Below are positions 6,455 through 24,535 of a DNA stretch of 34,932 nucleotides, in pieces; within the stretch, counting starts at the first letter, position 1, and each line of letters begins with the position of its first letter. The translations under genes were made by a program, and so were the position numbers. The DNA comes from Candidatus Nomurabacteria bacterium (GTDB lineage: Bacteria; Patescibacteriota; Minisyncoccia; Phycocordibacterales; UBA9973): contig JBBIUG010000002.1 in NCBI GenBank assembly GCA_037440325.1, forward strand, positions 1 to 34,932, read 5' to 3'. The notes below the pieces were generated by a model. The model searched no databases and had not been told where the DNA came from. It worked only from the letters and a program-made list of their open reading frames with translations.

Positions 6455-7093
6455 ATGCAGACTTACAAAAGATACTTTTCAGATAAATATTTTCTTATCT
6501 CTTTTTTGGGTGGCGTCGTGCTTTTGGGAACAAGTTTGGTAGCTCAGTTTTTTGTGAGCGGTTATGTGAATAGCCTGCCCGACACTCCAGTTCCCGATCT
6601 CATTTTGAGCAATACAAGAGTTTACGATGTGGATTTAATTTTCGTTTATGGGTCCGTGTTGCTTTTGCTTGTCGGCATTTTTATCGGGGCAAAACACGTG
6701 AGGTGTGTCCCCTTCGCATTCAAAAGCGTTGCTCTTTTTACTTTAATCAGATCAGTTTTTGTGAGCATTACTCACATAAGTGCTTTTCCAACCCACGTAG
6801 TGATAAATTCTCCTTTTTTTAACAAGGAAGTCTTCAATGGAATTTTTACGGGAAATGATTTATTTTTTTCCGGACATACCGGATTACCATTCCTTCTCGC
6901 TTTAATGTTTTGGGAACACAAAACAGTCAGAACAATTTTCTTAGGATTTTCTATCCTCTTTGCAATTGTTGTACTTTTAGGACACATTCACTACTCCATA
7001 GATGTACTATCCGCTTATTTCATCACTTTTAGTATTTTTTATCTTTGCAAATTTTTGTTTAAAAGCGAGTGGAAGCTTTTCCAAAATAAATAA
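6455..7093 (+). CDS. Sphingomyelin-synthase-like / PAP2_C phosphotransferase membrane protein
   Basis: All four SMS-family motifs can be read: SLPD (D1), R-x6-T in LIRSVFVSIT (D2), D-x3-SGHT in NDLFFSGHTG (D3), and HYSIDVLSAYFITFSIF (D4, HYxxDVx3Yx6F). Confidence 0.7.
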   Translation: MQTYKRYFSDKYFLISFLGGVVLLGTSLVAQFFVSGYVNSLPDTPVPDLILSNTRVYDVDLIFVYGSVLLLLVGIFIGAKHVRCVPFAFKSVALFTLIRSVFVSITHISAFPTHVVINSPFFNKEVFNGIFTGNDLFFSGHTGLPFLLALMFWEHKTVRTIFLGFSILFAIVVLLGHIHYSIDVLSAYFITFSIFYLCKFLFKSEWKLFQNK

Positions 7094-7098
7094 AAGAT

Positions 7099-7188
7099 TG
7101 GCGGAGAGAGAGGGATTCGAACCCTCGGTCCTTTTTGGGGGACGACAGTTTAGTAAACTGTTGGTTTAAACCACTCACCCATCTCTCC
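7099..7188 (-). tRNA. Type-II (long variable arm) tRNA-Ser-like gene with anticodon ACU; CCA encoded
   Basis: Reverse complement folds as GGAGAGA-TG-GGT-GAGTGGTTTAA-ACC-A-ACAGT-TTACTAA-ACTGT-CGTCCCCCAAAAAGGACC-GAGGG-TTCGAAT-CCCTC-TCTCTCC-G-CCA. All stems are Watson-Crick and the discriminator is G73. Confidence 0.75.
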
Positions 7189-7304
7189 GTAAATTCGCTC
7201 CGCTCAAACGGAGCCGCTACTGCGAATCGATGGGTTCGTGGTCGGCACTTTGTGCCGGCTTGGAGGCAAGCAGTTGCCTCCTCGCCCATCTCACCCATCT
7301 CTCC
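7189..7304 (-). other. GC-rich structured leader upstream of the ACU tRNA; it starts with a 15-nt copy of the tRNA 5' end
   Basis: GGAGAGATGGGTGAG occurs at 7304-7290 and again as the tRNA 5' end (7188-7174). Between the copies lie an 8-bp hairpin GGAGGCAA-CTGC-TTGCCTCC, the hairpin CGGCAC-AAA-GTGCCG, and ATTCGC...GCGAAT enclosing GCTCCG-TTTGAG-CGGAGC. Confidence 0.35.
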
Positions 7305-7386
7305 AAAAGTTAGAACTAGTATAGCAGAAATAATGGAAAAAACGCAGTAATATGCTAGAGTAATAAAGTTATCAGATAATGCAAAA

Positions 7387-7475
7387 GGAGCCGTGTCAGA
7401 GTGGTCTAACGTACCTCTTTGCTAAAGAGGCAGGGGCTTCAAAACCCCTCGACGGTTCGAATCCGTCCGGCTCCG
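7387..7475 (+). tRNA. tRNA-Ser(GCU), type II
   Basis: Acceptor GGAGCCG/CGGCTCC, anticodon arm CCTCT-TTGCTAA-AGAGG, long variable arm AGGGG...CCCCT, T arm GACGG-TTCGAAT-CCGTC, G73. The D stem (TCA/CGT) pairs poorly in my fold. Confidence 0.8.
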
Positions 7476-7489
7476 CATTTTATTAAAAC

Positions 7490-7846
7490 TTAGGCTCTCT
7501 TTTTTGCTGTATGGACGGCTTTCTTAACCACCCTTTTTGCGCCACTCCATTCGCTTTTTACTTTTGCTGCTAGAGCTTTGACGTCTTTTTCATGCAATTT
7601 ATACTGCTTTGCGTAATTCTTTGAAATAGCATCCACTGTTTTATGATACAAAGGCACGGTCACTGCTTTGGCTTTCTTCACTTCTTTTTCTACTTCTTTT
7701 TTTACTTTTGCTACGATAACCTTCGCTTTTTTCTGATGCGCTTTTGAGTTCGGTCCTAAAAAATAATACATACCCGCTCCGACGACGGCCAATCCTACCC
7801 CAGCAGCGACTTTTTTTCCAACTCCACTTTTTTTGTTTTTTTGCAT
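7490..7846 (-). CDS. Lys-rich small membrane-anchored protein, unknown function
   Basis: ATG start. One Gly/Ala-rich TM segment (AAGVGLAVVGAGMYYFLGP) followed by Lys-rich helices. Confidence 0.5.
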   Translation of the reverse strand: MQKNKKSGVGKKVAAGVGLAVVGAGMYYFLGPNSKAHQKKAKVIVAKVKKEVEKEVKKAKAVTVPLYHKTVDAISKNYAKQYKLHEKDVKALAAKVKSEWSGAKRVVKKAVHTAKKRA

Positions 7847-7874
7847 AATTTTATTTATTTAATAATGATAATGA

Positions 7875-8129
7875 TTATTGATTCTTGCGACTCTTCTTCT
7901 TTTTTCCAAAAAGAAAACTAAAAATTTTGTTTTCTTTTATTTCTTCGATTATCTCTTTAGTCGTTTCTCCAAGATCGTTTATATCTTTTTCTGCTTTTTC
8001 TAAAATTCTAGAGAGGGTGCTCGTGGCGCGAATGAGATAAAACAGAAATATTGCCGTAAAAATCCACAACACGACAAAACCCACCGAGGAGATAAAAAAG
8101 AAAATTTGCGTTTGTATTTGTGTATCCAT
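7875..8129 (-). CDS. Small membrane protein, DUF948-like (TM helix plus coiled-coil)
   Basis: One N-terminal TM helix, then LSRILEKAEKDINDLGETTKEIIEEIKE. Confidence 0.45.
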   Translation of the reverse strand: MDTQIQTQIFFFISSVGFVVLWIFTAIFLFYLIRATSTLSRILEKAEKDINDLGETTKEIIEEIKENKIFSFLFGKKKKSRKNQ

Positions 8130-8166: not shown

Positions 8167-10389
8167 ATGGAACTTCACGAAAAAATAGAAACAAAATTTC
8201 GCCTAGACATAAATCAGAAAAAAGCCCTGCACCGACTGAAAATTTTTTCGGTGGCAGACTTACTTTTTCATTTTCCCCTCCGGTATAGCGATATTAGTGA
8301 AGTCAAAAACATTTCAGAACTGGTTCCAGGGGATATGGCAACGGTTTACGGGAAAATCTCAAAATTAAAGACAAAGAAATCTTTTCACACAAAAGTTCCA
8401 ATGGCTGAGGGCGAAATTGAAGATTTGTCAGGGAAAATAAAAATCACCTGGTTCAATCAAGCATATTTGGCCAAGATGATAAAGAATGAGGAAAATGTAA
8501 AACTAACCGGGAAGGTCACCCAAGGAAAAAATGGTATTTATTTGGCCAACCCCGAGTTTGAAAAAATGCCGGATATGCCGATAGACAAGCACGACACTCT
8601 TTTTACGGGAGAAAATGCACCAAACACCGGTTTCTCGTATCCCATTTATGCCGAGACTCGTGGCATCACTTCAAAATGGTTTTATCATGCAATAGAAAAA
8701 ATATTTAAAGAACACACGTTGGATCGAATCGAAGATTACATTCCAGATGATATATTAAAAAAATACCACCTCCCCACCCTAAAGACAGCCCTGGTTTGGA
8801 TTCACAAACCAAAGAACAAATACGACGCAGCATCCGCACGCAAAAGATTCGCTTTTGAAGAAGTTTTTTGTATTCAACTTGAGCGTCAGCATGATAAATT
8901 TGAATATAGAAAAAATAAATCTTTTCAAATAAAAACCGACAAAAGGGTTGTGGAAGACTTTTTGAAACGTTTTCCATTTTCATTAACCAACTCACAAAAG
9001 AAATCAACTGAAACAATTTTGGAAGACATGGGAAAGAGTTTTCCGATGTCTAGACTGCTTGAAGGCGATGTCGGTTCCGGAAAGACAGCCGTGGCGGCCA
9101 CCGCCACTCACGTAGCCATCAATCAGCGACCAAACGGACAAAGTTTCGGTAATCTGCAAGTAGCATATATGGCGCCTACTGAGATTCTGGCGACTCAACA
9201 TTTTGAATCATTCATCCAATACTTCAAACACCTGCCGATAAATATCGGGCTCATTACCGGATCTGGTTGTCGTAAATTTCCTTCAAAAATAAACCCGGAT
9301 GGTTGGACCACTATTTCTCGTGCCCAACTTTTAAAATGGACAGCAAATGGAGAAATACCAATTTTAATCGGCACCCATGCACTTATCCAAAAAACTGTGA
9401 AGTTTAAAAATCTGGCCATGGTAATAATTGACGAGCAGCATCGTTTTGGCACAGCCCAGAGAAGAAAACTAGTCCGCAAAGATGGGGTCGCTCCGCACTT
9501 ACTCTCCATGACCGCCACCCCCATTCCCCGCACACTAGCTCTCACTATTTATGGAGACCTAGACCTATCTTTGCTTTTAGAAATGCCCGCCGGACGAAAA
9601 CAAATAATTACTGAAATAATTACTCCAAACAAGCGAGAAGAAACTTATGAAAAAATAAAAGAAGAATTAAAAAATGGTAGACAGCTTTATGTCATTTGTC
9701 CGAGAATATTTGAAGCCGAAGCGGAGACTGCCCAAGTTTTTGGTCCCCGAGGGTCCCACTCCAAAGGAGAAGGGCGCAGGGGGCAAAAATTTGGGCAGCT
9801 GGAGCTCAAGGCGGTCACAACAGAGGCAAAACGACTGAAAAAAGAAGTTTTCCCGGAGTACGAAATAGGTATTCTGCACAGTAAAATGAGCAAGGAAAAA
9901 AAAGAAAAAGTAATGCAAGATTTTACTGAAGGAAAAATAAATATTTTGTGCGCCACCTCTGTAGTGGAAGTCGGAGTGAACGTTCCGAACGCCACTGTAA
10001 TCATTATCGAGGGGGCCGAACGTTTCGGGCTCGCCCAGCTTCACCAACTTCGTGGACGCGTCATCAGAAGTAATCATCAAGCATATTGTTACATTTTTGC
10101 CGAAGCAAAAAGTGAAAAGACGATGGAGAGACTGAAGGCAATCAAGACTGCCAAAAATGGTTTTGAGTTGGCGGAGCTTGATCTAGCGCTTCGCGGACCA
10201 GGAGAATTGGGTGGTACCAAGCAATGGGGCATCACTGATCTAGGAATGGAAGCAATAAAAAATATAAAAATGGTTGAGGCAGCCAGAACAGAAGCAATTC
10301 GCCTGATTGAAGAAGATTCGGAACTAATAAAATATCCACTTCTTAAACAAAAAGTGAAACAAAAGACGTCTGAATTCCATTTCGAATAA
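8167..10389 (+). CDS. recG: ATP-dependent DNA helicase RecG
   Basis: Wedge/OB N-terminus, motif I GDVGSGKT, DEQHRFG, SMTATPIPRT, and QLHQLRGRVIR. It carries an extra segment of about 24 aa between the helicase lobes (see repeat 9728-9798). Confidence 0.9.
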   Translation: MELHEKIETKFRLDINQKKALHRLKIFSVADLLFHFPLRYSDISEVKNISELVPGDMATVYGKISKLKTKKSFHTKVPMAEGEIEDLSGKIKITWFNQAYLAKMIKNEENVKLTGKVTQGKNGIYLANPEFEKMPDMPIDKHDTLFTGENAPNTGFSYPIYAETRGITSKWFYHAIEKIFKEHTLDRIEDYIPDDILKKYHLPTLKTALVWIHKPKNKYDAASARKRFAFEEVFCIQLERQHDKFEYRKNKSFQIKTDKRVVEDFLKRFPFSLTNSQKKSTETILEDMGKSFPMSRLLEGDVGSGKTAVAATATHVAINQRPNGQSFGNLQVAYMAPTEILATQHFESFIQYFKHLPINIGLITGSGCRKFPSKINPDGWTTISRAQLLKWTANGEIPILIGTHALIQKTVKFKNLAMVIIDEQHRFGTAQRRKLVRKDGVAPHLLSMTATPIPRTLALTIYGDLDLSLLLEMPAGRKQIITEIITPNKREETYEKIKEELKNGRQLYVICPRIFEAEAETAQVFGPRGSHSKGEGRRGQKFGQLELKAVTTEAKRLKKEVFPEYEIGILHSKMSKEKKEKVMQDFTEGKINILCATSVVEVGVNVPNATVIIIEGAERFGLAQLHQLRGRVIRSNHQAYCYIFAEAKSEKTMERLKAIKTAKNGFELAELDLALRGPGELGGTKQWGITDLGMEAIKNIKMVEAARTEAIRLIEEDSELIKYPLLKQKVKQKTSEFHFE
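9728..9798. repeat. GC-cored hairpin element, copy A, in-frame inside recG
   Basis: A 15-bp stem CTGCCCAAGTTTTTG / CAAAAATTTGGGCAG encloses the core CCGAGGGTCCCACTCCAAAGGAGAAGGGCGCAGG (9747-9780). The core is 33/34 identical to 16600-16633. Confidence 0.8.
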
Positions 10390-16096: not shown

Positions 16097-16173
16097 CCCG
16101 TGATAATAGCACAAAAAAGATTAAATGTTAATGAGAAAACTTTATCGGAAAATAAAACTTTTTGCGAATCGAG

Positions 16174-16561
16174 TGGAGATGGGGGAAATCGAATCCCCGT
16201 GCAGAAGGTTATTGTAAAGAAGTCTACATACATAGCACGCTTTTTTTGTTTAGATTAAAAAATTCTTAAGCGAGCGAAATATTTTTTAATCGAGTCCCTT
16301 TGTTTCGGATATTGTCAGGACATTCAATAATCCTATCCCGATAATATTATGCCTTAATCCATATATCGGAAGTCTATGGACAAGACACCAACCTCAGGCT
16401 TACGCGAGGGCTGGAGCGAATGCGAACACATTACCGAAGTAAGGTGAGCGGATTGCTGAAGTTAATTTTGCAATTAACAATTGAACGAAGTTTAACGAGA
16501 TTACGTTCATACTCGGCATGCATCAATAACAATAGGCCAACTGTCTATGCCTTGCATCCCC
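16174..16561 (-). ncRNA. ssrA: tmRNA (SsrA), one-piece
   Basis: The 5' GGGGATG pairs with the 3' CATCTCC-A, including a G3:U pair. T arm is GGGGA-TTCGATT-TCCCC. An internal frame ends ...GCT CCA GCC CTC GCG TAA (tag ending APALA). It lies next to smpB. CCA is not encoded. Confidence 0.85.
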
Positions 16562-16571
16562 AAATTTGTTT

Positions 16572-16660
16572 AAGCGAAGTTTCCTAAAAATTTTTTAGTC
16601 CGAGGGTCCCGCTCCAAAGGAGAAGGGCGCAGGACAAAAAATTATTAGAAAACTTCGCTT
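16572..16660. repeat. GC-cored hairpin element, copy B (smpB-ssrA spacer)
   Basis: A stem of about 25 bp, AAGCGAAGTTTCCTAAAAATTTTTT / AAAAAATTATTAGAAAACTTCGCTT, encloses GTCCGAGGGTCCCGCTCCAAAGGAGAAGGGCGCAGGAC. Confidence 0.8.
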
Positions 16661-16664
16661 CTTG

Positions 16665-17111
16665 TCAACGTGCCTTGTATTCTCTGCGGATCTCGCGATC
16701 CGTTTCGCGCTTTTTAATAGTTTCACGTTTATCAATTTTTTTCTTTCCTTTCACCAAAGCGACTTCTACTTTTATTTTTCTTCCTTTATTATACACTGAA
16801 ATCGGGGCAATTGTCAAACTCTTGTTTTTCTCGCTATCGGCGAGCTCTGCAATTTCTTTTTTCGTAAGCAAAAGTTTTCTATTCCTGAGTGGATCATAGT
16901 CTTTCGGCGCGTTTAACGGTTGATATGGCGGGATATTGGCGTTAATCAGAAAAGCTTCTCCCCCACGAATGATGATAAAGGCGCCGTCTAAGGACATTCG
17001 CCCTCCCCTTACCGCTTTCACCTCTGTACCCAAAAGCTCAATACCTGTTTCGTATTTTTGGAGTATTTCGTAGTTAAACCGAGCTTTTCTGTTTTCCGCA
17101 TAATTTGCCAT
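16665..17111 (-). CDS. smpB: SsrA-binding protein SmpB
   Basis: NRKARFNYEI...GTEVKA...G, the typical SmpB signature, with a basic C-terminal tail. Confidence 0.95.
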   Translation of the reverse strand: MANYAENRKARFNYEILQKYETGIELLGTEVKAVRGGRMSLDGAFIIIRGGEAFLINANIPPYQPLNAPKDYDPLRNRKLLLTKKEIAELADSEKNKSLTIAPISVYNKGRKIKVEVALVKGKKKIDKRETIKKRETDREIRREYKAR

Positions 17112-21659: not shown

Positions 21660-24428
21660 CTACTCCATCGTTTTATATCGATTTATTATCTCAGTTTCCA
21701 CTTCTTCCCTATCGCGACCGTATTTTATGTAGGAAAGTTCCTTCAAATTTTCCACAATGCTTGGATTGCCGATCTCTGGCGCCAAGGTGCGCAGATTAAA
21801 TGGTTTTGTTGGTTGCCCTTTAACCAACATACTCATATAAGCGTTGTAATTGTCGAGTTTGGTAATATCCGCTGCGGTGAATTGTGGTTTGAATTTTGGT
21901 TCCAAAAATACCGCGTCTTCGGTACCTACTCGGAAAACCGCCATCGAACCGACATTGCCAAAGACGGCGTTCTTGATACCCTCTTCAAGCTGGCTGATGT
22001 ATTGATGCGCAATGTTGAGAGACAATCGATATTTTCTCGCCTCCGAAAGAATTGAAGCGATCGAATCGGTGGTGACATTCTGAAACTCATCAATATAAAG
22101 ATAAAAATCATTCATCGGTTTGCCGAACATGTCGACACGCGACAGGGCCGCCATTTGTATTTTCCCCACGAGCACAAGACCGATCAAATTTGCGTTAATG
22201 TCTCCTAGCCTCCCCTTGGACAGATTTACCAAAAGAATTTTCTTCTCGTCCATAATCTTACGGAAATTAAAAACAGAATTTTGCTGAAGCACTACCGGGC
22301 GCATGATGTCGTTCGAGATAAAATTATCGAATTTGGATGAGATATATGGAACAAAGTTCGCAAGCGATTGATCTCCGGAAGTTTGTTCGGCCGCAACCCA
22401 GAATTGCTTAATAATCGGATTTTTACATTTGGAAAGTTTGTAATCACGGAACTTTTTGTCTGCCAATACTCGAGTAATCTCGAGCAGAGTGGAGCCGGAC
22501 TCCGGGTCCTCCATTACCAAGAAGGCGCTATTCCTAAAGTACTGTTCGAACATAGCTCCGCCACCGATTTTCATATCAAAAAGCTTATTAAAAATACCCA
22601 TCATTTCATTTACCACGAAGGTTTTTTGCTCCGGATATTTCGGATCATATTCAAGCATATTAAGACCCATTGGGCGCGCAATATATGCAGGGTCAAAGTA
22701 AATAACATCATCTATACGTTCCTTTGGAATACGAGATAAAATGGTCTGGATATCCGTGCCGTGCGGATCAATATAACAACAGCCGTCCCCGTTTTTGATG
22801 TCCTGGGTAATCATGTTGAGCATAATGTTTGTCTTCCCTGTCCCTGTCTGGCCGATAACATAAAAATGTCTCATGCGGTCTTCGCGAGCAAGGTGAATTT
22901 CTGTATCTTTACCCCGATAATTGTTTACTCCTAAAATTATTCCCTCATTCCCCATTTCAATCGGAGCAGGACCAATGCCGGCTCGTGCTTCTTTGAGCTG
23001 CGGCTGACTGCCAATGCCAACCGGAAAATGAAACACCGAAGAAAGTTCTTTCAAATTCATCGGCAACACCTTGTCGCCCAAAAAGGTGCGGTAGGAAAAA
23101 TCATGAAATAGTTTTTTCAAATCCCCTCCGGAAACTCGTTCGAAAACAAATGAATTGCTGGCTGCTTCGGAAAACTGGTTGAAGGATGATTCTATCTCGC
23201 GCAAAATCGCCTCCGCACGTTCTTTGCTTTCTCCGGAGGCTATCACCCGAATATTCGCTTTCATGATGGTACTTTTTATTTTATTGCCGATTTTTTCTGC
23301 CGCTCCTTCGTCTACCGCTCGCCTGCCTTTCATATATTTCTCTTTTACTTCGCTGTCTTCTTTTTCCTTCTTGCCGAAAAGCAGCTCTTTACCAACGCTA
23401 ATGAAGGCTCTGTTAAATTTATAATAATTATCCGCCGCGTTTTTAACAGACATGCCGTCTTTTACGTCGTCTAGAATTTTATGAAATTCATTAATAAATT
23501 TGTCGCCGGACGGGACGATAACAAGTTGAATCGCTGCCCCCTCCCCTGAAGTTTTTAATTTTGAAAACACATTCAGAATCGGGTTCATCGGATCATGATC
23601 AATATTGTCATACGTTTTTATCGGCATGACTGCTCGCTCGGAAAAACTGGCGTACGCGCCGACCGAGCCGCCTTTTTCATTGAAGATATTGTAATCATCG
23701 GAGACTTCTTTAATTTTCGCATCGTGGTAAAAAGCTAAAACCTGTTTTTCAAAAAGAGAAAGATATTTGTTGGGAACTGCTGCGTACACCACCACTTCGT
23801 CACTTTGATTTCCTAGCGCTACTTCTAGAGTAAAATAATTTTCTTTTTCATTATATTTTCCTTCTCCGATAGATTGCATGCCTGCATAAAATTGTTCCAT
23901 TGCCCCGATGAATTCTTTGAAATTCTTTGATTCATCCGCTTCATCTTGAGGTGGCGGTAAGGTAATTTCAAAAAGCGTCATGTTTAGAGATTTGTAAAAA
24001 GGAGTACCTTCCTTTAAATCAAAAATAACTTGCCCAGTTTTAATATATTGAATAAGAATGCGGTGAAAATCATCGTCTACATGTGGGTTGTTCATCGCCC
24101 CCACCACAGAAAGTGCATTTCGAATTCCTTTAGTGACAACAATTCCCAAAAGCTCTTCCATAACGACATCGTGCGTCTCTGGTTTAAGCGCAAGCACAAT
24201 CCCCTCTGTCTCTTTTTTGCTGATTAGACTGTCTTCATGAACCAGTTTTTCGGCTGGAATATTTTTGTATCCGACAATAACGTCCTTCGCGGCATTTTCC
24301 TTTGTGTGTTCAATGTGTCCGGCCTTGATAAGTTCTTCTTCTCTGGCTTTAACGTGTGCACGCAAATAGTCTAGCTCCTCTTCTGGGCTTTTGAACTTCG
24401 GCATCTCTTTAAAGAATGACGGTTCCAT
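21660..24428 (-). CDS. Large VirD4/TraG/TraD-like (FtsK-HerA superfamily) P-loop ATPase with an unassigned N-terminal half of about 500 aa
   Basis: Walker A GQTGTGKT, Walker B FYLYIDEFQNV, and the TraG/TraD C-terminal-type motif EARKYRLSLNIAHQYISQL. Confidence 0.7.
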   Translation of the reverse strand: MEPSFFKEMPKFKSPEEELDYLRAHVKAREEELIKAGHIEHTKENAAKDVIVGYKNIPAEKLVHEDSLISKKETEGIVLALKPETHDVVMEELLGIVVTKGIRNALSVVGAMNNPHVDDDFHRILIQYIKTGQVIFDLKEGTPFYKSLNMTLFEITLPPPQDEADESKNFKEFIGAMEQFYAGMQSIGEGKYNEKENYFTLEVALGNQSDEVVVYAAVPNKYLSLFEKQVLAFYHDAKIKEVSDDYNIFNEKGGSVGAYASFSERAVMPIKTYDNIDHDPMNPILNVFSKLKTSGEGAAIQLVIVPSGDKFINEFHKILDDVKDGMSVKNAADNYYKFNRAFISVGKELLFGKKEKEDSEVKEKYMKGRRAVDEGAAEKIGNKIKSTIMKANIRVIASGESKERAEAILREIESSFNQFSEAASNSFVFERVSGGDLKKLFHDFSYRTFLGDKVLPMNLKELSSVFHFPVGIGSQPQLKEARAGIGPAPIEMGNEGIILGVNNYRGKDTEIHLAREDRMRHFYVIGQTGTGKTNIMLNMITQDIKNGDGCCYIDPHGTDIQTILSRIPKERIDDVIYFDPAYIARPMGLNMLEYDPKYPEQKTFVVNEMMGIFNKLFDMKIGGGAMFEQYFRNSAFLVMEDPESGSTLLEITRVLADKKFRDYKLSKCKNPIIKQFWVAAEQTSGDQSLANFVPYISSKFDNFISNDIMRPVVLQQNSVFNFRKIMDEKKILLVNLSKGRLGDINANLIGLVLVGKIQMAALSRVDMFGKPMNDFYLYIDEFQNVTTDSIASILSEARKYRLSLNIAHQYISQLEEGIKNAVFGNVGSMAVFRVGTEDAVFLEPKFKPQFTAADITKLDNYNAYMSMLVKGQPTKPFNLRTLAPEIGNPSIVENLKELSYIKYGRDREEVETEIINRYKTME

Positions 24429-24446
24429 TTACTGTATTATAACACA

Positions 24447-24524
24447 AATATCTCGGAAGGAATTTTAAACGTCGTGGGTCCCCTGCCCTTTTGTCTCCGA
24501 GGGCGAAGACGCAAAAAATTCTTT
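24447..24524. repeat. GC-cored hairpin element, copy C (between map and the VirD4-like gene)
   Basis: Arms AATATCTCGGAAGGAATTTTAAAC / GCAAAAAATTCTTTCCGAGATATT enclose GTCGTGGGTCCCCTGCCCTTTTGTCTCCGAGGGCGAAGAC. The core aligns with copy B at the GGGTCCC and AGGGCG blocks. Confidence 0.65.
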
Positions 24525-24535
24525 CCGAGATATTA

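Follow-up and report, generated by a model that had tools for sequence, protein, structure and literature searches.

Rickettsia palindromic elements (RPEs), numbered RPE-1 to RPE-10, are short palindromic repeats dispersed across the small Rickettsia genome, and many of them lie in frame within unrelated housekeeping genes, where the conserved peptide that they add is thought to be compatible with the fold and function of the protein; other copies are intergenic or lie beside RNA genes, and no transposase is known for them (PMC10969869). Here, we analyzed a stretch of 34,932 nucleotides (hereafter the window) of contig JBBIUG010000002.1 from a Candidatus Nomurabacteria bacterium of the Paceibacterota, within the Candidate Phyla Radiation (CPR), in which the recG gene carries an in-frame hairpin with a GC-rich core. 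The recG segment is probably (at roughly 0.6) one copy of a dispersed, non-autonomous family of hairpin repeats in Paceibacterota, which would combine strand-specific insertion with core exchange. By its behavior, this family is read as a new set of protein-coding palindromic repeats in CPR that resemble RPEs and the small inverted-repeat transposable elements known as MITEs. No description of RPE-like elements in CPR bacteria was found in the full-text literature searched, the coverage of which is incomplete.

The window RecG was compared with its 120 closest homologues (source names Paceibacterota, Parcubacteria, and Nomurabacteria), found at 78–100% identity and with RecG Pfam domains, and with the unrelated RecG of T. 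maritima (1GM5; E = 7e-127). In the latter alignment, residues 13–518 and 544–717 of the window protein match across the contiguous 1GM5 residues 592/593, leaving 25 amino acids without a counterpart, and the nearest RecG orthologues without the insert are 20 amino acids shorter at this site. The segment is missing from 82 of the 120 homologues, which read ..FEPDPEKELALNVKSAV.. at this point and resemble the ..SDKLNVKSAV.. of T. maritima. The remaining 38 have alternative flanks (FEAE...LE[LM]K), and all except about four of them hold inserts of variable length at exactly the same point, comprising at least 6–8 distinct hairpin inserts. These alignments bear out the initial annotation, which had proposed an in-frame hairpin in recG and an alignment of orthologues to delimit it, and they show that the extra peptide is an insertion and not an ancestral domain. 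In an AlphaFold2 model of the window RecG, residues 514–547 form a coil with a predicted local distance difference test score (pLDDT) below 50, between a strand (506–510) and a helix (549–561) of helicase domain 2; the model is of low quality (mean pLDDT 59) and was therefore too poor to justify a fold search. The copy is thus predicted to fall in a loop where helicase domain 2 begins. Two antisense open reading frames (ORFs) on the minus strand, 9667–10080 (137 amino acids) and 9687–10004 (105 amino acids), run across the element and overlap recG; they owe their existence to the lack of stop codons in any of the six frames of the GC-rich core and are in all likelihood spurious.

At the DNA level, the recG insert matched the covariance model of the family over positions 9714–9813 (87.9 bits), an interval with a GC content of 61% as compared with about 40% for the window. 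The 15-bp stem first reported for this element was recovered, with 14 Watson–Crick pairs and one G–T pair, and with its inner helices the RNA folded at -50.4 kcal/mol (z = -5.3; none of 200 shuffles was as stable). The span originally assigned to the hairpin does contain this stem but is too short, as the pairing reaches further on both sides (Table 1). The core, reported as nearly identical to an intergenic sequence downstream, indeed differs from it by one base (33/34), and a search for the 32-nucleotide core with up to three mismatches returned exactly two occurrences in the window against an expectation of 0.00 (100 shuffles). The second copy begins 4 nucleotides past the smpB stop codon and ends 10 nucleotides upstream of the 5' end of the transfer-messenger RNA (tmRNA) gene. 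All six frames of this copy contain stops, and its fold (-42.2 kcal/mol, z = -6.0) is equally stable on either strand. A third, related hairpin with a variant core starts 1 nucleotide past the stop of the methionine aminopeptidase gene (map) and folds at -40 kcal/mol; a like core lies in frame in the NAD-dependent ligase LigA of another contig (L001, 1911–2010). The window thus holds three hairpin elements rather than the four copies that had been claimed. Directly after the third hairpin, on the minus strand at 24430–24446, stands an extended -10-like motif, TGTGTTATAAT, before a gene of 922 amino acids (21660–24428, minus strand), and a similar TTTGTGTTATATTT directly follows the hairpin of contig L003. 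The product of the 922-amino-acid ORF, which lies downstream of the third hairpin, gave weak matches to TrwB, TraG-D_C, and HerA-like ATPases, like a type IV coupling protein.

Table 1. Positions in the window of the hairpin elements, their parts, and the genes around them.
Feature	Position	Strand	Basis
recG, intact ORF of 740 amino acids hosting the element	8167–10389	+	ORF call and homologues
Whole recG hairpin: outer 3-bp helix, internal loop, long AT-rich arms, GC-rich core; translated ..EAETAQVFGPRGSHSKGEGRRGQKFGQLE..	9720–9806	+	fold
Codons of RecG residues 519–543 (25 amino acids), no T. maritima counterpart	9721–9795	+	1GM5 alignment
First-reported span: 15-bp stem (9728–9742/9784–9798) and inner helices	9728–9798	+	sequence, fold
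recG core CCGAGGGTCCCACTCCAAAGGAGAAGGGCGCAGG: GC-rich, three short stacked helices and a triloop	9747–9780	+	33/34 identical to 16600–16633
tmRNA gene (ssrA), adjoins second copy	16171–16561	-	Rfam RF00023, 111.7 bits
Second copy, 89-nucleotide intergenic hairpin between smpB and the tmRNA gene	16572–16660	+	fold; covariance model, 94.7 bits
Core of second copy	16600–16633	+	sequence comparison
smpB, adjoins second copy	16665–17111	-	ORF; syntenic genes in L028 and L029 carry PF01668 SmpB
Third, related hairpin, variant core CGTCGTGGGTCCCCTGCCCTTTTGTCTCCGAGGGCGAAGACG	24447–24534	+	covariance model, 41.4 bits, E = 1e-5

The core search was extended beyond the window, as the initial annotation had advised. 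The exact core (24–27-mer) was found in 24 further contigs from genomes and metagenomes of Paceibacterota (L001–L024; 3 GTDB species genomes and 21 metagenome contigs) and gave no match in the viral contigs searched. Copies of the family are hairpins of 85–105 nucleotides with AT-rich arms, most of which fit a loose consensus, approximately GAASTTCTTTnAATTTTTTG ... CGAAAAATTnAAAGAASTTC, on either side of a neck and apex rich in GC (CCGAGGGTCCC-apex-GGGCGCAGG). The covariance model, derived from 22 copies, also recovered the third window hairpin and the LigA variant of L001. In-frame copies in intact ORFs were found in RecG at a second site (after ..FQIKT), in LigA, Tgt, Dus, and UvrC, with LigA holding two core sites and the variant-core copy at a third. 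The ten intergenic copies occupy short spacers, among them rplD/rplW in two lineages and those after rplL, after the L25 gene, and after atpF; six of the ten start no more than 4 nucleotides beyond the upstream stop codon, two of these six overlapping the stop. No Rfam family reached its gathering threshold, and even at E ≤ 10 only models of microRNA precursors, which are generic hairpins, were returned, far below their thresholds. A search of the antisense peptide against 50%-identity cluster representatives gave only three unrelated tandem-repeat proteins and was uninformative because the representatives need not carry the insert; a word-index search with a concatenated peptide of 44 amino acids yielded no candidate words. 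Kink-turn, signal recognition particle-like, and UUCG-tetraloop readings of the core were dropped, being unsupported by sequence or Rfam, and so was the idea that the outer arms are an inverted duplication of the target, since most arms fit the family consensus.

Conservation of the structure was evident across the family. Compensatory changes were observed in 20 of 33 stem pairs, paired cells made up 91% as compared with 42–58% in slid controls, and the covariation score was 0.41 versus 0.09–0.14, a value reached by none of 500 shuffles. The orthologous RecG copies of L013 and L017 differ in their arms by substitutions that are non-synonymous and at the same time compensatory, so the constraint lies on the nucleic acid and not on the peptide. 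The arms and termini are the most variable part and merely keep their pairing, while the core is nearly invariant among the retrieved copies, an invariance that is partly a matter of ascertainment because L001–L024 were retrieved by exact core match. The RecG set was selected at the protein level, and there the neck (PRGS..EGRR) recurs often and the apex varies. Moreover, the window recG and that of L026 share 75% nucleotide identity overall and 48% at third positions, as compared with 83% and 76% in the aligned element region, where the arms plus neck show three differences in about 66 nucleotides. This comparison, which is free of that ascertainment, still shows constraint or recent exchange.

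The orientation of the element is strongly strand-biased. All three window copies lie on the plus strand, in a region where the GC skew is negative nearly throughout and most genes are on the minus strand, and both L001 copies lie on one strand. The core of each of the ten intergenic copies runs antisense to the genes on either side, with a single convergent ORF at L007 as the exception. When loci are oriented so that the core reads on the top strand, their GC skew is negative in all but two. Within genes, the element is held in both orientations relative to the mRNA. A rule based on the chromosome strand, that is, on replication, fits slightly better than one based on transcription because recG, whose copies are sense-oriented, runs opposite to its neighboring genes.

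The main rival explanation is a cis-acting structured motif of the host, in RNA or DNA, whose conserved core would bind a cellular protein and whose coding copies would be tolerated by-products; it could serve in mRNA 3'-end protection, termination, or processing, or as a signal oriented with replication or segregation. The near-invariant core on arms that only keep pairing speaks for this explanation, as do the common orientation of the intergenic cores to their flanking genes, the six starts close behind a stop codon, the positions of some copies inside operons (rplD/rplW) or before a promoter-like TGTTATAAT, and the conservation of arms plus neck above synonymous sites. We nevertheless consider it unlikely, since copies inside ORFs occur in both orientations relative to the mRNA, orthologous sites are empty in close relatives, the invariance of the core owes something to the way the copies were found, and the motif lacks an Rfam family at the thresholds given above. 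As a secondary role within a dispersed repeat family, intergenic copies may also serve as putative 3' stabilizers or terminators.

Filled and empty sites were compared among orthologues. The window RecG has site 1 filled and site 2 empty, and the RecG proteins of L013, L017, and L022 show the opposite. The smpB–ssrA spacer of the syntenic relative L029 is empty, with 11 nucleotides, and that of L028 holds a different and shorter hairpin; over 22 syntenic kb, L029 has no hairpin of the family, versus three in the 35 kb of the window. A neighbor-joining tree asking whether the insert-bearing recG genes form a clade was star-like, and insert subtype does not track RecG protein distance. The mean distances were 0.151 within insert-bearers, 0.136 within insert-less genes, and 0.148 between the groups, so that a single ancient insertion is indistinguishable here from repeated events or recombination.

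Arms and apex group differently at recG site 1. By arm type, the window and L026 belong together, whereas by apex the window, L031, and L033 share a short form (CTCC-RAA-GGAG) and L026 and L032 a long one (CTTTGAGCCC..GCGCCC). Furthermore, the apex of the window recG copy is that of the smpB–ssrA copy in the same genome, with dissimilar arms in the two. This shuffling points to core exchange between copies and would be best explained by gene conversion or template switching, not by recent transposition of whole elements. Together with sites filled and empty in both directions and arm–apex combinations that differ by lineage, it fits the earlier suggestion of a mobile or gene-converting element.

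The element would act at the DNA level, with its spread and upkeep in two layers. In the first, a trans-acting enzyme would rarely insert it in a strand-specific manner, using single-stranded DNA at the replication fork, as in systems of repetitive extragenic palindromes (REPs) and their REP-associated tyrosine transposases (RAYTs) or in the insertion sequences (ISs) IS200/IS605; the orientation bias fits such a mechanism. In the second, after insertion each arm would template the other, keeping the stem by compensatory change, and short-patch gene conversion or template switching would exchange cores among the copies. Core swapping would explain both the 33/34 match between the recG and smpB–ssrA cores of one genome and the occurrence of the same arms with a different apex in the orthologous recG element of another lineage. 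Going further, the GC-rich core may be what a REP/RAYT-like or new enzyme system of CPR bacteria recognizes in a DNA transaction that is linked to replication and specific to one strand, and it may be actively copied from hairpin to hairpin; this extension is doubtful. If true, old cassettes in essential genes would be continually re-seeded, and the element would be a modular, core-hopping repeat and not a decaying MITE.

Several observations weigh against a mobile repeat family. The replication and transcription rules for orientation are confounded, and the ascertainment of the core described above reduces what its invariance can tell. phmmer queries with IS200 and IS608 TnpA gave no match in 287 kb of collected loci, and neither a transposase or other mobilizing gene nor a parent IS was found in these loci. 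Among the copies examined, no insertion is so recent that two sites share an identical whole element. Target-site duplication is limited to a single possible case, TTGT flanking the smpB–ssrA copy, with none clear at the recG sites. In addition, distant lineages carry elements that differ in arms or core at the Tgt site, at two LigA sites, in rplD/rplW, and at recG site 1; each site may therefore stem from one ancient insertion with little later mobility.

If mobility is doubted altogether, the recG segment could be a variable surface loop of RecG that turned palindromic locally, with the intergenic match arising from one conversion or by chance. The diversity of hairpin types at recG site 1 is in keeping with this account, and template switching can generate hairpins (see also PMC10710096, abstract). 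It is contradicted by the presence of the same 27-nucleotide core in five other gene families and many spacers on 24 other contigs; moreover, most copies share the arm consensus, and the chance expectation of the match is 0.00. We therefore regard a purely local origin as very unlikely.

The reading frames used in genes bear on whether the insert remains in the protein. Coding copies use only two frames, the RGSHS frame in the sense orientation (..PRGSHSEGEGRRGEKF..) or the LRPSP frame in the antisense orientation (..FSPLRPSPSEWDPRGQK.. or ..LRPSPSEWDPRGQK..), which with mean hydropathies of -1.45 and -0.88, respectively, are the two most hydrophilic of the six. In 15 of 22 copies the APFSF frame has no stop, yet no coding copy uses it. 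The frame of the host ORF was kept without stops in every copy whose host ORF was readable. The use of hydrophilic frames, the disuse of other open frames, and the stops in all six frames of the intergenic copy argue that the inserts are translated and would be filtered for loop-compatible peptides.

This bears in turn on the idea that mature RecG lacks the segment because it is lost from the transcript or the protein, as a tiny intron, by RNA excision triggered by the paired arms, or as a mini-intein. Paired termini would bring both junctions together, and in animals transposons with inverted repeats are cut out of mRNA by an RNA-level system (PMC11870413, abstract). Removal would not explain why readable host ORFs keep their frame and use only hydrophilic frames while the intergenic window copy has stops in six; the frame argument is weakened in that an ORF-breaking copy would have been placed among the intergenic ones, but the checked ORFs on either side proved to belong to different genes. 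Furthermore, at 20–25 amino acids or 87 nucleotides, the insert is far too small for an intein, and searches for an intein, a self-splicing intron, or a ribozyme gave no Pfam or Rfam match beyond the RecG domains. Excision is thus highly improbable. As for an artefact of assembly or binning, or contamination, nothing specific suggests it beyond the window being a metagenome-type contig, and it has practically no chance given that independent NCBI, JGI, ENA, and Logan assemblies carry the element, always in intact ORFs or tidy spacers.

The likeness to RPEs put forward in the initial annotation is supported as behavior. As with RPEs, the dispersed family comprises long hairpins with in-frame copies in several unrelated genes, intergenic copies, and orthologues that lack the insert. 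It differs in belonging to an unrelated phylum, in its length (about 85–105 nucleotides versus about 100–150 bp for RPEs), in having a GC-rich core within an AT-rich frame, with a conserved centre and co-varying arms, and in its evidence of core swapping and strong strand bias. It is not filed as an RPE because the host belongs to the Paceibacterota and not to Rickettsia, and the likeness is one of behavior only. The RPE work of Ogata et al. (2000, 2002) reportedly agrees with the RPE behavior described at the outset.

REPs and bacterial interspersed mosaic elements are GC-rich imperfect hairpins of about 35–40 nucleotides with fixed mismatches that lie just after stop codons in a strand-oriented manner. 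They lack classical target duplications and are mobilized via single-stranded DNA by RAYT (TnpA_REP), comparable to the ends of IS200/IS605. By definition, REPs lie outside genes; they lack long AT-rich arms, are marked by a GTAG or CGTC tag, and are found together with a RAYT gene. The core of the window family is likewise a GC-rich, strand-oriented hairpin often found just after stop codons, as in REPs (see also PMC3733652, abstract). Unlike REPs, many of its copies are intragenic, so the extragenic definition fails, and it has long AT-rich arms. Type-A copies carry neither GTAG nor CGTC, only the variant core of the third window hairpin starting with CGTC, and the TnpA queries reported above detected no Y1 (HUH) transposase in the collected loci.

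Bacterial MITEs that fuse with ORFs, such as Coxiella QMITE, ERIC, BOX, Correia, and cyanobacterial elements, are small non-autonomous inverted repeats (PMC10969869; PMC5896051, abstract) that fold into hairpins and sometimes make in-frame fusions, and the window family resembles them in this. MITEs usually have conserved terminal inverted repeats, target duplications, and a parent IS, whereas the inverted-repeat arms of the window family follow a loose consensus and their termini are its least conserved part. The GC clusters of yeast mitochondria are mobile GC-rich palindromes in a very AT-rich genome and are occasionally coding, as in var1. They differ from the window family in being organellar and eukaryotic and in lacking long AT-rich arms, and we know of no strand rule for them.

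CPR, or Patescibacteria, genomes are regarded as small and streamlined. The repeat family of the window inhabits essential genes for repair and tRNA modification in one CPR lineage and lengthens the proteins that they encode; it explains part of the length oddities of CPR proteins and can mislead alignment, phylogeny, and structure prediction. It also provides, next to Rickettsia, another and independent example in nature of palindromes that code for protein, so that their origin and tolerance can be compared. To our knowledge, the mobilizing or converting mechanism is not known even for RPEs, and the strand bias and arm–apex shuffling offer testable clues to it that are also relevant to them.

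Other GC-rich hairpin inserts, with other cores and at other sites, were noted in RecG and LigA of relatives, for example at the ..LFRPPRPSGTPPSQGE.. site and as CCGCCAAAGGCGGATCCGCCTCYGGCGG. They include L026 10426–10535, the RecG proteins of L022 and L016, L027 1870–1910, L016 1880–1915, L014 1501–1610, and L028 11120–11150. Several families of hairpin inserts probably coexist in this clade. In the window itself, the intergenic segment 30735–30795 holds a perfect 16-bp GC hairpin (TTGGGCCCCCGCCGGC/GCCGGCGGGGGCCCAA) with another small hairpin behind it; the segment resembles a terminator, and its sequence is not related to that of the recG element.

Genes of mobile elements were observed close to recG in relatives. 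In L025, a gene with an HTH_Tnp_1 domain and a large serine recombinase (3–1858) stand beside tRNA-Ser, and L026 holds a reverse transcriptase (RVT_1; 6984–8006); no link between these genes and the hairpin element emerged. Moreover, the window segment 7189–7300, between two divergent tRNA-Ser genes, is GC-rich and folds strongly (-52 kcal/mol per 110 nucleotides), and it has no Rfam match even at E ≤ 1. A near-identical motif lies beside tRNA-Ser in L025 (1981–2090) and L026 (3736–3845), and the segment could be an undescribed small RNA or the remnant of an integration site.

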